Counted from the stretch's first letter, positions 39,352 to 43,603 are shown. The stretch is DNA of 64,000 bases from Candidatus Bathyarchaeota archaeon (GCA_963806535.1 CAWDYC010000005.1:160001-224000), one strand, 5' to 3'. The notes: generated by a model not told the origin, from the letters alone. Made by a program: numbers and translations.

Positions 39352-39394
39352 GTTCCGCTTTGGAACAGCACTGTTCCGTCAGCAGAGCTAATAG
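39352..39394 (+). promoter_or_regulatory. GTTCC-N5-GGAAC box, second GTTC half-site and TATA-like TAATAG upstream of module 1
   Basis: gttccgctttggaac (39352-39366); tgttccgtcagcagagctaatag (39372-39394) aligns without gaps to the 43.5-43.8 kb promoters. Confidence 0.6.
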
Positions 39395-39429
39395 GTACTT
39401 GAAGCTTAAGCCAAAGCAAGTGAATAACA

Positions 39430-40515
39430 ATGAAAATCGGAATCAAACTATTTGCAGTAGCAATCCTCTCGTTAACAATGGGAATTGCATGCGCTTCGCC
39501 CCTATTAGTCTCGGAGTTGAACATTAGACCCTACATAAATTATGTGCAAGGACAAACTGCACCATTCAACATCAACGTTGTCTACGCCAACTTTACCATA
39601 CAAAACGCAGACAAGCCAGTAGAACTAAACAGTGGACCAACTATATCCTACTTTGCAATAGTAAACATAACCAACCCTTCTAACTTGGTCGCTACGCTTA
39701 CAATACTTACCTTTGAGGCTGCGCCAGAAATACTTCAGATTCCATCATCGATTCAAAATGGTTCCATTGCTTACGAAGCCCCAGGCGCTTGGGTTGATGG
39801 CAAATATTACAATCTGACCTGGGTTGACACTTCATCGCCATACTTGGGTGAAAACGGCAAGTTGTCAGAGTTTAAAATTGCTTCTCCGTATTGGATGCAA
39901 GGTGTGCAAGTATTTGATACATATGTTAACGGCAACGTTACTTCTTCATATCTAAACATGAATGGAACATGGACCAACGTAACTGGTCAAATTGAAGTGG
40001 CAAGACAACCTATAGGCAGCGAATACTCATCAGCTGGTACAACAGAAGTTGTTTTTAACCAACAAGGCTTTTCGAACGATCCAAGCGAGAACTACTCAAG
40101 CAATGGCATAATATTTGATCCGTCTGCCTCTCAACCTTTCGGACCAATAAGCTTTACCAATCATTTTGTAGGTCAAGGGTTTTTCAACAATTCTTGGAAA
40201 CCACATCAGTCCCGCTTAGTAGCAATATCTGGCAGTTGGCAAGTACTTGCATCCTTGGGGGCGAAAGACAGACCGGTGAAAGCGATACAGGCAGGCACCC
40301 TTACATTTATGACCCAAACTGACAACTTCGTAGATTTATCAGCTCCCGTGAATAATACTGTGATAAATACATCGTCTCATGACATTGAACTTAAACAAGT
40401 GCAGCTAACGCCGAGTGGCAACAGCTATCTCTATAATCCACTATCGCTCGATAACCGAGCATTCCAAATCGACAAATGGGGCGTCGAAGCAACCTTAAGG
40501 AGCCAAACGTCATGA
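39430..40515 (+). CDS. Exported/N-anchored hypothetical protein (module 1, partner)
   Basis: N-terminal hydrophobic GIACASPL segment; N/S/T-rich; shares FNxxVxYA and LTPxxxxxLYN with 42672..43514. Confidence 0.8.
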   Translation: MKIGIKLFAVAILSLTMGIACASPLLVSELNIRPYINYVQGQTAPFNINVVYANFTIQNADKPVELNSGPTISYFAIVNITNPSNLVATLTILTFEAAPEILQIPSSIQNGSIAYEAPGAWVDGKYYNLTWVDTSSPYLGENGKLSEFKIASPYWMQGVQVFDTYVNGNVTSSYLNMNGTWTNVTGQIEVARQPIGSEYSSAGTTEVVFNQQGFSNDPSENYSSNGIIFDPSASQPFGPISFTNHFVGQGFFNNSWKPHQSRLVAISGSWQVLASLGAKDRPVKAIQAGTLTFMTQTDNFVDLSAPVNNTVINTSSHDIELKQVQLTPSGNSYLYNPLSLDNRAFQIDKWGVEATLRSQTS

Positions 40516-40997
40516 CCAACACTGAAAGCGATGAGCTTGAAGGCAACACTCTTAACGTGTATGCTTTTGTGGTCAAAGAAGGTAAACCAGTTGGACCACG
40601 GGAAGTAATGCGGGGCGCTAACCTCAGTGGCCCAAGTACCGCTTATCGGCAGCTTCAAAAACTCGAATCTCTTGGATTAATTCAGAAAAACGTTTACGGG
40701 GCATACGTGGTCAAAGAGAAAGCAAGCGTGAGCGGGCATGTGTGGGTGGGCAGAAACCTCGTACCGCGTCTATTATGTTATTCCATCTTCTTCTTTGGAA
40801 TCTTAAGTGTTGAAGTTACTATCTTGGTTGTGCAATTCTTTTCTCAAGGTCGAACACCTAGTTTAGCAGTTATGTATCTAGCGCCTATTACCGCTATATC
40901 AGCCGGGCTCTTTTTAGTTGAGGGGTTACTGTTGTTTAGAAAGAATAGGCCAAGTAGCGCTTCAAAAGATTACTTTGACGATGAAAAACATATCTAA
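40512..40997 (+). CDS. Membrane-anchored winged-helix regulator (LexA-like DNA-binding domain + 2 TM), module 1
   Basis: PVGPREVMRGANLSGPSTAYRQLQKLESLGLIQK then two TM helices; ATG overlaps the partner stop (ATGA). Confidence 0.82.
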   Translation: MTNTESDELEGNTLNVYAFVVKEGKPVGPREVMRGANLSGPSTAYRQLQKLESLGLIQKNVYGAYVVKEKASVSGHVWVGRNLVPRLLCYSIFFFGILSVEVTILVVQFFSQGRTPSLAVMYLAPITAISAGLFLVEGLLLFRKNRPSSASKDYFDDEKHI

Positions 40998-41033
40998 TCA
41001 CCTCTGCCACAAGAGAATCATAGTGATTCAAGA

Positions 41034-41216
41034 ATGAAAACAAGAACTTCGAATCGGCGCAAACAATCGAACTCCAAGTATCAAATAGCGGGAGTCCTCT
41101 TCGGCTTGGCAGGTTTGGGACTAATCGCAGTTTCCTCAATAAATTACATGCTTATCTTCGTTGGCATCGGACTCATAGCCGTTGGCATCTATTACTTCAT
41201 GGACAAAATACTTTAG
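41034..41216 (+). CDS. Small membrane protein (2 TM)
   Basis: Basic N-terminus followed by two hydrophobic segments. Confidence 0.6.
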   Translation: MKTRTSNRRKQSNSKYQIAGVLFGLAGLGLIAVSSINYMLIFVGIGLIAVGIYYFMDKIL

Positions 41217-41331
41217 CGGGTCTCTTCTGATAATGCAGAATTGTTTTCTCAAAAATTAGATTAGTTGCTTATGGAAAGCGGAAAATGTTTAAATGTTGTT
41301 TGGAACAGCAATATTAAGAGCAGAGCGAAGT

Positions 41332-41405
41332 GGGCCCGTAGCTCAGCTAGGTAGAGCGCCAGACTCATAATCTGTTGGTCACCAGTTCAAATCCGGTCGG
41401 GCCCA
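41332..41405 (+). tRNA. tRNA with CAT anticodon, most likely tRNA-Ile2 (agmatidine type)
   Basis: Cloverleaf GGGCCCG..CTCATAA..TTCAAAT..CGGGCCCA; the GGGCCC acceptor stem is typical of archaeal Ile tRNAs rather than Met; no intron, CCA not encoded. Confidence 0.9.
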
Positions 41406-41467
41406 CATTAATCTTTAAGAGCCGCTGCGAAATGGGGAGGGCTAATTCGCAACAAAATTACAAAAAT

Positions 41468-41965: not shown

Positions 41966-41986
41966 TTGCCTAAATTTAACCTGTTT

Positions 41987-42202
41987 TTACAAGGAAATAT
42001 TCAGTGAAAAATGCGGTCCAAAAATTCTTACGGGGAGAGTGTTTTTATCTTTTCTGCAATGTTGTTTGCCTGCCTCAACTTTGACTACGGGTGCAACTTT
42101 GATGATGGGGTTTCCGTTAGTATCGTAGTCAATCGAGAGGCCATATTCCGTTTTTGTATTCAGTATTAATTGAATCGCAGTAAGTATCTCTTTATTGCCC
42201 AT
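41987..42202 (-). CDS. Small hypothetical protein
   Basis: 71-aa ORF starting 3 nt after the module-2 regulator stop. Confidence 0.4.
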   Translation of the reverse strand: MGNKEILTAIQLILNTKTEYGLSIDYDTNGNPIIKVAPVVKVEAGKQHCRKDKNTLPVRIFGPHFSLNISL

Positions 42203-42205
42203 ATA

Positions 42206-42658
42206 TCACTTCAGCTCCGCATGCTTTGGATTAAGTTTCCCATAAAGCAATAATCCTTCAATTAAAAACAGAATCATTGCCACAGCAGTCATTCCGGTTA
42301 AGAAAAAGAAGCTTGTTTGGATAACTATAGCTTTTATTAGATAGCTTAACAATATAATTGCTATCTCGGCGGCGAATGCGCCTAGAAAAAAGAAGGAATA
42401 AAACATCAACCTTGGCACGAGGTTTTTGCCGACCCACACGTGCCCGTTGATGCTTGTTTTCTCTTTTAGAATATAGTTGCCATACTCGTTTTTCTCAATT
42501 AACCCGAACTCTTCCAGCTTTTGCAGATGCCTGTGAGCGACGCTTGTACTGCTAAGATTTGCTCCTCTTGTGACGTCTCTTGTGCCTACAGGTTTAGCGA
42601 CACGCACAATGTATGCATAGACATTTAATGTGTTGCCTTCAAGTTCTTCGTTAGCCAA
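42206..42658 (-). CDS. Membrane-anchored winged-helix regulator (LexA-like DNA-binding domain + 2 TM), module 2
   Basis: PVGTRDVTRGANLSSTSVAHRHLQKLEEFGLIEK; clear paralog of 40512..40997. Confidence 0.85.
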   Translation of the reverse strand: MANEELEGNTLNVYAYIVRVAKPVGTRDVTRGANLSSTSVAHRHLQKLEEFGLIEKNEYGNYILKEKTSINGHVWVGKNLVPRLMFYSFFFLGAFAAEIAIILLSYLIKAIVIQTSFFFLTGMTAVAMILFLIEGLLLYGKLNPKHAELK

Positions 42659-42671
42659 AGTTGCCGCATCC

Positions 42672-43514
42672 TTAAGGTTTGGTTTGCGTGTTAAAAGGGG
42701 ATCCTAAGTTGGTTTGTGAAAGTTGGTCTTGAGGTATCATGGTGTTGTAAAGAAATCCTCCGTTATATGGTGTGAGTTCTATATGTTGGATAATGGTGTT
42801 GTCTGCTGGGGTAGTTATAGTTGAGTTGGCTTCGATTGTAATGTAGCCTAGTCTTCGTATATCAATGGATATTGTGTGGGCATTTTCGATGTTTCCTGTT
42901 TGTTCCCGCTGAATGTCAATCCAACTGCTTGTCATGTTTATGCCTTGTAACGCAAAAACTGTATAATTTTCGTGGATATCTGATTTTGCGGGGGTTGCGA
43001 GTTTTCCGTTGAAGTTTGGTAGAAACAGAAAATAGTTGTAGGTTGGAAAGCTGTTGTTAAAGTATTGTTGTTGAGTGATAGCTTGTGAACCTGTTGTTAA
43101 AGTATTGTTGTTGTTAAAGTAGGTTTGAAGCCCGTTGAGCCATGTGTTATATGGGTTAATAGAGCCTGTACAGTTGGCGCCGATAAAGTAAGTCCAGTTT
43201 TGAATTGATCCTTGGTCAGAATAAACTTGTATTTGGTAGAATTCTATTCGACTGTTTGGGAGCGTTTTTATAGCGTCAGCATTTGTGGTGACTTTAAGCT
43301 CTACGTAGTATGCTTCAGCGAAAGTTGTATTTCCCGGTTTTGTTGTTGTGTCTGCTATCCAGTAGGCGTAAGGTACACTAAGATTAAACCATGGGTTCTC
43401 CTGTGACGTTGATGCTTGGGCGCCTCCTGACATAAAGAATTCTAGTGGCACTATTGAAGCAATTCCTATAGCTATTGCTAGAATTCCGCATAGTATCAGT
43501 TTTTTCTCAATCAT
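42672..43514 (-). CDS. Exported/N-anchored hypothetical protein (module 2, partner)
   Basis: KKLILCGILAIAIGIASIVPL, FNLSVPYAYW, HIELTPYNGGFLYN. Confidence 0.8.
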   Translation of the reverse strand: MIEKKLILCGILAIAIGIASIVPLEFFMSGGAQASTSQENPWFNLSVPYAYWIADTTTKPGNTTFAEAYYVELKVTTNADAIKTLPNSRIEFYQIQVYSDQGSIQNWTYFIGANCTGSINPYNTWLNGLQTYFNNNNTLTTGSQAITQQQYFNNSFPTYNYFLFLPNFNGKLATPAKSDIHENYTVFALQGINMTSSWIDIQREQTGNIENAHTISIDIRRLGYITIEANSTITTPADNTIIQHIELTPYNGGFLYNTMIPQDQLSQTNLGSPFNTQTKP

Positions 43515-43544
43515 TGGTTTTACGCCGCTCTATATTCCCTCAAG

Positions 43545-43603
43545 GCAGCTAATAATTCTCTCCCAAGAACAAAACATCTCCAAAGTGTTCTCAAAGAGAA
43601 CGG
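43545..43603 (-). promoter_or_regulatory. Promoter with two GTTCT..AGAA(C/T) boxes (left arm of inverted repeat)
   Basis: Boxes at 43587-43601 and 43555-43570, followed on the minus strand by TATTAG. Confidence 0.72.

Follow-up and report, generated by a model that had tools for sequence, protein, structure and literature searches.

A conserved partner-regulator operon in Bathyarchaeia: a small, predicted membrane-tethered regulator, its exported partner and their putative operators

Bathyarchaeia are abundant sediment archaea, and one of their genomes carries the same pair of genes twice within a short distance. The locus lies in a stretch of 64,000 nucleotides (nt) from Candidatus Bathyarchaeota archaeon (GCA_963806535.1, CAWDYC010000005.1:160001-224000), hereafter the window, and each pair consists of a gene for an exported or membrane-anchored protein (the partner) followed by a gene for a small winged-helix protein with a membrane hairpin (the regulator). 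The first-pass annotation, made from the sequence only, took the pairs for a duplicated signalling module in which an exported sensor acts on a membrane-bound, LexA-like transcription factor. Our analysis favours, with a probability of about 0.6, a conserved operon that would join a minimal membrane-tethered autoregulatory regulator to an exported partner, with operators of its own and regulons of surface proteins. The four open reading frames (ORFs) on which that annotation was built were all found at the coordinates and on the strands given there:

39430-40515, plus strand: partner 1, ORF of 361 amino acids (aa), exported or N-terminally anchored
40512-40997, plus strand: regulator 1, 161 aa, winged helix at about 11-67 and membrane hairpin, recognition helix PSTAYRQ
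42206-42658, minus strand: regulator 2, 150 aa, architecture as regulator 1, recognition helix TSVAHRH
42672-43514, minus strand: partner 2, 280 aa, short type, with conserved N- and C-terminal segments and a middle that differs from partner 1

Gene order and operators of the pair

The two operons of the window converge (39430-40997 on the plus strand, 43514-42206 on the minus strand), and in both of them the partner gene comes first and the gene for the regulator of about 150 aa comes second. In pair 1 the ATG of the regulator overlaps the TGA of the partner (ATGA), while in pair 2 there are 13 nt between the two genes; an alternative in-frame ATG of regulator 1 at 40476 would give 173 aa, and orthologue alignments favour 40512. 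A third pair is found on the same contig (C5:123640-125323), where a 400-aa partner is followed by a 159-aa regulator whose start is 1 nt past the partner stop. Altogether the whole genome holds eight regulator loci, one of them interrupted by a stop codon.

Moreover, the pair is a conserved unit beyond this genome. In a gene-neighbourhood survey, of the kind that the first-pass annotation had suggested, the regulator stands immediately downstream on the same strand in 29 of the 30 partner loci with the best partner matches, the exception ending at a contig edge. After merging of match pieces there are 107 partner genes, and at least 75 of them lie within 1.2 kb of a regulator, as counted with the 150 of 858 regulator matches listed; among these 75 the regulator is downstream on the same strand in 73, divergent in one, and in the last the match is a merging artefact of two tandem pairs.

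The same annotation pointed to GTTC/GAAC boxes upstream of the pairs, and these boxes are real. Exact GTTC-N7-GAAC occurs three times in the window (39352, 43587 and 43723), each time in one of the two pair promoters; in the shuffled window 1.02 such sites are expected, and 7 of 100 shuffles reach three. The position is shared far more widely: among 32 distinct partner promoters, three of them from this genome and 29 from others, 30 carry GTTC-N7/8-GAAC at a distance of 73-87 nt upstream of the start codon; of the two promoters without the palindrome, one has only 62 nt before the contig end and one keeps a third half-site alone. In the 118,488 nt of 31 loci there are 34 sites, 29 of them at -73 to -81; for a sequence of this total length the density of the genome (81 sites in 2.95 Mb) predicts about 3. 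The sites of the window are as follows:

39352-39366, plus strand: O1 palindrome of pair 1, GTTCCGCTTTGGAAC, exact GTTC-N7-GAAC, 78 nt before the partner ATG
39373-39378 and 39384-39394, plus strand: third half-site GTTCCG of pair 1, then the invariant AGAGCTAATAG, from the promoter alignment
43548-43601, minus strand: promoter of pair 2, with O1 GTTCTCTTTGAGAAC at 43587-43601, third half-site GTTCTT at 43565-43570 and the AGAGAATTATTAGC element
43723-43777, plus strand: mirrored operator/promoter of pair 2, with GTTCTTTTTGAGAAC, 17 nt, GTTCTT and the same AGAATTATTAGC element, facing an ATP-binding cassette (ABC) operon

In the aligned promoters the order of elements is GTTCxx-N3/4-xxGAAC, 5-6 nt, a third half-site GTTCxx with the same xx, 5 nt, AGAGCTAATAG, about 30 nt, GGTGA and the start codon. 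The third half-site co-varies with the arms of the palindrome and AGAGCTAA stays invariant, and GTTCxx-N5-AGAGC (in pair 1 GTTCCG-N5-AGAGC, that is GTTC-N7-GAGC) makes a second, imperfect palindrome with its centre two helical turns from that of the first. The third half-site and the AGAGCTAATAG region probably overlap the core promoter. As AGAGCTAA has 131 copies genome-wide, near the roughly 110 estimated from base composition, the idea that it serves the promoters of this genome in general is rejected; in the present setting it may nevertheless double as a weak core promoter, and the operator would then be placed where archaeal activators such as ArnR bind.

Similar palindromes are seen further afield. 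GTTC-N7-9-GAAC lies just upstream of the regulator orthologue in three of five genomes of other classes, and within the class palindromes with spacers of 8-10 nt occur in five of the ten upstream regions viewed; of these ten, six stand before regulators of five distant families (one regulator being interrupted by a stop codon) and four before unpartnered paralogues of this genome.

For 31 loci both the fifth base of the half-site and the recognition helix of the regulator next to it are known, and in every one of them the base goes with the helix, in the following classes:

S-x-A-H-W-H: GTTCG, 8/8 loci
S-x-A-(Y/H)-R-Q: GTTCC, 8/8 loci
S-x-A-Y-W-H: GTTCT, 14/14 loci
S-V-A-H-R-H (pair 2): GTTCT(C/T), 1/1 locus

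In this genome the three pairs carry three different operator classes, the site of pair 3 being at C5:123564-123600. In a tree of 27 full-length regulators three class changes suffice, and the GTTCG class forms one clade with support 99/97. A rule leading from helix to base would be consistent with these data, in which it is weakly tested.

Between the convergent pairs there are a tRNA-Met (CAT) gene (41332-41406, plus strand) and small membrane-protein ORFs. The start of a 196-aa ORF, called at 41375, falls within the tRNA gene, so that its true start is probably further downstream. Upstream of the tRNA gene, at 41299-41315, there is a 17-mer, TTTGGAACAGCAATATT, with 88% identity to part of the pair 1 operator region.

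The regulator and the partner

Regulators 1 and 2 are identical at 77 of 145 residues (53%, E 4e-59), and both contain the motifs quoted in the first-pass annotation. The AlphaFold2 model of the regulator, with a predicted local distance difference test (pLDDT) score of 77, has a first helix at 11-23, a second at 29-36, the recognition helix at 41-53 and a wing at 57-67, followed by helix 76-112, a loop of five residues and helix 118-144, the last two helices being long and hydrophobic. The C-terminal tail is short and basic, and almost nothing of the model would be exposed outside the cell; since the hydrophobic hairpin has basic residues in front of its first helix and behind its second, both ends are predicted to be cytoplasmic. 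The model thus upholds the idea of a winged helix tethered by two membrane helices. In 150 diverse representatives the core winged-helix residues are strongly conserved. A glutamate had also been noted in each membrane helix; this is right for both window regulators, and among 95 diverse representatives covering both helices the glutamate of the second is kept in 90, so that it is family-wide, whereas the position in the first helix holds Glu in 30 and Tyr in 33 and is specific to a subfamily.

The family is a large one. For regulator 2 there are 1489 homologues, and the regulator profile matches 859 clusters among 1.84 billion representatives, 553 of them at E 1e-10 or better; among the matches listed (150 clusters) most are of about 130-190 aa and aligned nearly over the full length, with some fragments and a few longer proteins. 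The search for longer fused forms returned one protein (378 aa), which is weak evidence. Public names of the orthologues are generic and mutually inconsistent, one source giving 'LexA repressor DNA-binding domain-containing protein'.

As to the likeness to LexA, the winged-helix resemblance stands and the specificity for LexA does not. In seven paralogues LexA_DNA_bind (PF01726) scores 13.6-23.5 bits with a cut-off of 23.7, and IclR, TrmB, MarR and HTH_20 hits score near it; one paralogue exceeds the cut-off of HTH_20 (31.5 bits vs 27). The nearest structural matches of the regulator model are of the IclR, MarR, HrcA and PhiH1-repressor types, and no LexA is among those listed. With the Pfam scores of the window regulators under the cut-offs and with such structural neighbours, 'LexA-like' is a generic winged-helix resemblance only. 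The LexA protease domain was said to be absent, in agreement with which no Pfam hit to the S24 self-cleaving peptidase is reported on the regulators and the membrane hairpin takes up the C-terminal half. Nor do Pfam scans at E up to 1 and up to 0.1 report a hit to Trans_reg_C (OmpR/PhoB-type); NCBIfam has no family for any of the four window pair proteins, and the sequence search of solved structures gave as its best E 0.035 with the regulator profile and E 0.092 with the partner profile.

The partners were described as related at their ends and divergent in the middle, and this description holds. Pairwise, partners 1 and 2 align at the ends only (E 0.003 and E 0.004); with the profile of 55 long partners only, partner 2 reaches E 2.2e-8 through its N-terminal and C-terminal stretches, so that the profile similarity on which the first-pass annotation had staked its proposal is present. 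The AlphaFold2 model of partner 1 (pLDDT 90.9, predicted template modelling score 0.80) has an N-terminal helix at 2-27 and an all-beta body. Its best structural match, in a search independent of Foldseek, is 8b7d_A, the luminal domain of TMEM106B (Z 9.9, root-mean-square deviation 3.1, 133/147 residues, model range 41-344), followed by the plant LEA-2 protein At1g01470 (1xo8) with Z 7.3 and by generic sandwiches with Z of at most 7.2, so that the top match is about 2.6 Z above the generic ones. The partner thus models as a seven-stranded LEA-2/TMEM106B-like beta-sandwich with a variable insertion: the conserved ends would form the sandwich and the variable middle of about 160 residues the insertion, and for this reason the partners align only at the ends. 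Foldseek gave matches of low template modelling (TM) score only, with TMEM106B the sole consistent one; matches to pore-forming toxins at TM about 0.1 were dismissed as meaningless. Pfam reports no family, LEA_2 included, at E up to 1 for either window partner, and the ESM Atlas has no usable match for partner 1.

The likeness to TMEM106B and LEA-2 proteins therefore lies in a seven-stranded sandwich preceded by a membrane helix at the N-terminus (TMEM106B having type II topology), while here the sandwich is split by the long insertion and has no Pfam hit; it is a resemblance of fold, from which no function follows. For LEA-2 domains a role in lipid transfer has reportedly been proposed.

Partner 1 has 177 homologues, and every one with an organism name is from Bathyarchaeia or 'Nitrososphaerota'. 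N-x-S/T sequons are numerous in the translations. The N-terminal helix is the best conserved segment, with 3.08 bits per column vs 1.9-2.7 elsewhere, and G18, A20, A22 and P24 are nearly invariant. Two further readings of the N-terminus were rejected by the signal rules: a type IV pilin-like protein, as no conserved G/A precedes the hydrophobic stretch, and a lipoprotein, as partners 2 and 3 do not keep the Cys found in GIACA of partner 1. The divergent middle of partner 2 contains a tandem direct repeat (43034-43113, 2 x 40 nt, 85% identity) with a 13-mer present three times; 40 is not a multiple of three, so that the two copies are read in different frames. Two proteins were tried and rejected as distant partners, each by its value against the long-partner profile in a one-sequence search space: a 273-aa protein upstream of one paralogue (E 0.079) and a 306-aa protein after pair 3 (E 0.017).

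Distribution and predicted regulons

Across the class the two genes have very different ranges. The regulator profile matches in 356 of 401 sampled genomes (200 of the 220 high-quality ones), with 1-3 matches in most families and up to 9 in the genus of the window and a few others; the partner profile matches in 51 of the 401, namely in two families (41/103 and 9/18 genomes) and in the genome of the window. In the phylum sample the regulator is found in 176 of 301 genomes, many families outside the class having a single full-length copy, and it was not found in two large families of that sample (0/45 and 0/20). The orthologues of five complete genomes that belong to other classes have 133-155 aa and the same architecture. 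They adjoin a gene for an N-terminally anchored or exported protein, which is divergent in three of the five and in one lies upstream with an overlap. Cultured genera of Thermoproteota have exact orthologues on record. From such profile matches the regulator family appears independent of the partner, the two genes travelling tightly together within one clade, and the partner appears as a lineage-specific late addition to an ancient regulator family.

Twenty close regulator paralogues had no listed partner. Three of them, with regulators of the regulator 2 type, turned out to have a short, pair 2-type partner upstream once the HMMER filters were off, three loci are cut by contig ends, and eight face a gene for an RnfD-like membrane complex; several of the remaining ones adjoin a gene for phosphoenolpyruvate (PEP) carboxykinase, and one faces a NosD/Laminin_G_3 surface protein with the operator in between. 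The product of the RnfD-like gene has a 4Fe-4S domain (NQR2_RnfD_RnfE, E 8e-31). Nine unpartnered loci form an orthologous group with the recognition helix S-V-A-Y-R-H, divergent to the RnfD-like gene, which hints that this group controls an Rnf-like complex, not surface proteins.

Other observations concern paralogues elsewhere in the genome and the class. A broken one (C7:49426-49846) has its match split by TAG, a frame without the membrane hairpin and no partner gene adjoining. The 'core'-type regulator (C4:540217 onward and two further loci) often adjoins a gene for a large secreted protein with the C-terminal motif ...YLVTFK..DPLF.I.L..P, which we take to be a surface protein with beta-propeller domains. 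At C4:374880-385000 genes for proteins that are exported or anchored by the N-terminus lie densely clustered, together with two distant regulator paralogues; the cluster also holds two ArsR-like helix-turn-helix (HTH) proteins (225 aa and 244 aa) with apparently hydrophobic C-terminal ends, which are candidate transmembrane regulators of another family.

The palindrome with its third half-site occurs 17 times in the 2.95-Mb genome, and 7 times in the fullest composite form; in the promoter of pair 2, which belongs to the GTTCT(T/C) class, the third half-site follows only after a 16-nt gap, so that this promoter falls outside the pattern. Composite operators stand before pairs 1 and 3 as well as before genes whose products are exported or anchored. 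Operators of the GTTCTA class are found before the gene of a 306-aa anchored protein that directly follows pair 3 and before that of its 312-aa paralogue on C10; those of the GTTCC class stand before PKD-like and other exported-protein genes on C4 and C8; and those of the GTTCT(T/C) class stand before four genes on C3, C6 and C11, among them those of a 621-aa NosD/beta-helix/Laminin_G_3 protein and of a protein of 327 aa whose Laminin_G_3 hit is near the threshold; a signal peptide and a C-terminal anchor are present in most of the four products. Which regulator would bind which of these sites is assigned by class match only. At C4:373604-373700 a full composite operator/promoter is followed by a partner-like N-terminus (MKFKYKLIAVAV...) and no long ORF, which is probably a decayed fourth pair.

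The promoter of pair 2 is mirrored 130 nt away, in a 58-nt inverted repeat, and there faces a divergent operon (43868-47107), whose genes are known from ORFs and NCBIfam:

43868-45193, plus strand: permease of the LolCE/MacB/FtsX type
45186-45914, plus strand: ATPase of the LolD/MacB type
45911-47107, plus strand: YVTN beta-propeller surface protein with a C-terminal anchor

From the mirrored operator alone, this operon of an ABC exporter and a YVTN protein is a probable member of the regulon. Just upstream of pair 3 there are two adjacent minus-strand ORFs of 328 aa and 130 aa (C5:121616-123340). Their translations look like the halves of a phage terminase large subunit, the shorter with a Walker-A-like GKT, and this suggests a provirus remnant adjoining pair 3.

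Known systems and the readings of the pair

The first-pass annotation knew no characterised archaeal system of this kind, yet membrane-bound regulators of archaea have been characterised. ArnR and ArnR1 of Sulfolobus acidocaldarius are membrane-bound one-component activators with an N-terminal HTH and two C-terminal membrane helices; they act on surface structures and depend on a pair of 15-bp inverted repeats located at -43 to -84 relative to the start of transcription (PMC6396743). An archaeal census of transmembrane transcription regulators (TTRs) exists as well (PMC10269533). With ArnR the window regulators share the order of an HTH at the N-terminus before two membrane helices, a target site, here predicted, that consists of two adjacent 15-bp inverted repeats directly before the B recognition element (BRE) and TATA box (both repeats being needed in ArnR), targets, here predicted too, among cell-surface genes, and paralogous copies in one genome. 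They differ in that ArnR has a HAMP-like and sensor domain between HTH and membrane helices where here there are about 10-20 residues in a protein of about 150 aa, in the box (TCGAC-N5-GTCGA vs GTTCnn-N3/4-nnGAAC), and in the exported partner, no co-operonic one being described for ArnR. By this architecture the regulator would be functionally closest to Sulfolobus ArnR.

The proposed kinship to ToxR/ToxS and TcpP/TcpH of Vibrio fared differently. There too, in what the census says of them (PMC10269533), a membrane-bound winged helix is encoded beside a membrane-anchored or exported accessory protein, with a shared logic in which sensing takes place outside and DNA is bound at the membrane. 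However, the window regulators have two membrane helices with a loop of about five residues, no periplasmic domain and no reported Trans_reg_C hit, and here the operon begins with the partner gene, whose product is modelled with a LEA-2-like fold, and the host is an archaeon. They are thus not members of that family, and the relation is one of analogy, not homology.

The census of Demey et al. (2023) counts 1,384 archaeal TTRs in 367 of 404 species, with an enrichment in Thermoproteota (PMC10269533). Its definition asks for a DNA-binding domain and at least one membrane span, and the modelled window regulators have both; as the census relied on detectable DNA-binding domains and these regulators score under the Pfam cut-offs, they may have been missed. 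The word Bathyarchaeota is absent from its main text, though its supplements might list family members, and the part of it available describes no archaeal operators, regulons or partner proteins. In the literature searched no description was found of the regulator family, of its operator or of such a pair in Bathyarchaeia. What differs from known systems is the combination of a bare winged helix with a hairpin, a co-operonic exported partner of LEA-2-like predicted fold, and operator classes specific to the paralogue.

In the mechanism that we favour, partner and regulator would be translationally coupled, and the hairpin of the regulator would expose about five residues outside the cell. Dimers of the regulator would bind the 15-16 bp palindrome GTTCnn-N3/4-nnGAAC and the adjacent GTTCnn-N5-AGAGC on the same face of the DNA; that the regulator binds the predicted operators is very probable. 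Since these sites lie directly upstream of the core promoter and overlap it, the operon would regulate itself, and activation is favoured by analogy with ArnR. The two bases after GTTC differ between paralogues and match the helix differences, so that the three pairs may run three separate circuits, each with same-class operators also before other genes of surface or membrane proteins. In the least certain step, the partner, acting from outside, would most likely modulate the regulator by way of the membrane region that both share or of the short outer loop. A complex prediction with full-length regulator 1 and partner 1, each with its own alignment, scored 0.01 vs a mark of 0.32 with controls not run, and gives no verdict. 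That the partner is a signalling partner, and not mere cargo of the operon, has in our estimate slightly under an even chance. More tentative again is the fullest form of the idea, a hitherto undescribed archaeal system of two-protein transmembrane signalling, in which the hypervariable insert of the partner would read an outside cue and relay it through the N-terminal helix or the outer loop to the tethered winged helix; duplication with matched changes of helix and operator bases 5-6 would give insulated channels, each driving its own surface proteins, and the unpartnered Thermoproteota-wide protein would be the ancestral envelope-linked regulator.

Several points weigh against this picture. 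Most regulators function without a partner, as the 356 genomes against 51 tell, and close paralogues of the same lineage adjoin RnfD-like, PEP carboxykinase and NosD-like genes instead. The G-x-A-x-A / (S/A)-P motif at the N-terminus of the partner fits a signal-peptidase site, with small residues at -3 and -1; the N-terminal helix could just as well be a signal peptide that is cleaved off, and the mature partner may then have no membrane helix for contact. As about three class changes suffice in the tree, shared ancestry could explain much of the concordance of helix and operator. The Pfam hits of the window regulators, to LexA_DNA_bind, IclR, TrmB and HTH_12, are all under the curated cut-offs. 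To take AGAGCTAATAG for a BRE/TATA element, and to choose between activation and repression, is a guess.

From these points other readings can be built. The partner could be simply the main output of the operon, with the tethered autoregulator sensing the membrane or envelope through its hairpin (for example by the conserved Glu) or through other proteins; the many family members and close paralogues that lack such a partner, the ordinary surface proteins without a regulator beside them that form the other operator-bearing targets, and an N-terminus compatible with a cleavable signal peptide all agree with it. We nevertheless consider it rather unlikely, because the nearly invariant order with overlapping or very close genes in 29 of 30 loci is more typical of proteins working together, the N-terminal helix of the partner is better conserved than the ectodomain, which is unusual for a mere export signal, and the orthologues of other classes have an exported-protein gene beside them too (three divergent, one upstream and overlapping, among five). 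It is far less probable that some other soluble factor binds the palindromes and that the winged-helix/hairpin protein is a tether of DNA or protein or a scaffold of the partner. Winged helices can mediate protein-protein contacts, and the sub-threshold DNA-binding hits would suit such a role; however, the operator class changes with the recognition helix of the cis-linked regulator in 31/31 loci, the operator is seen upstream of family members across the phylum, and the core residues of the winged helix are highly conserved in the diverse representatives.

The least credible reading, to which we give next to no weight, is that of a LexA relative, an SOS repressor bound to the membrane. In its favour, several paralogues have LexA_DNA_bind among their best Pfam hits (up to 23.5 bits), one public label of an orthologue names LexA, and the half-sites share four letters with those given in the first-pass annotation for Firmicute LexA. 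On the other side, the protein ends in a membrane hairpin without an S24 peptidase domain, every LexA_DNA_bind score stays below the cut-off with other winged-helix families scoring similarly, the nearest structures are of other types, as described above, and the operator-bearing genes encode surface proteins, not DNA-repair proteins. The order with GTTC first and a spacer of 7-8 nt is also unlike the Firmicute LexA box.

With the autoregulatory operon as the favoured reading, Bathyarchaeia would gain a readable circuit: a regulator present in most genomes of the class, an operator at a fixed position, an apparent rule from helix to base, and predicted regulons. Orthologues exist in cultured genera of Thermoproteota, so that two core predictions are open to bench work: that the regulator binds GTTC-N7-9-GAAC and that it controls the exported-protein genes next to it. 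Moreover, a TTR reduced to a DNA-binding domain and a hairpin raises the question of what such a protein may sense alone, and of whether the partner supplies the sensor.

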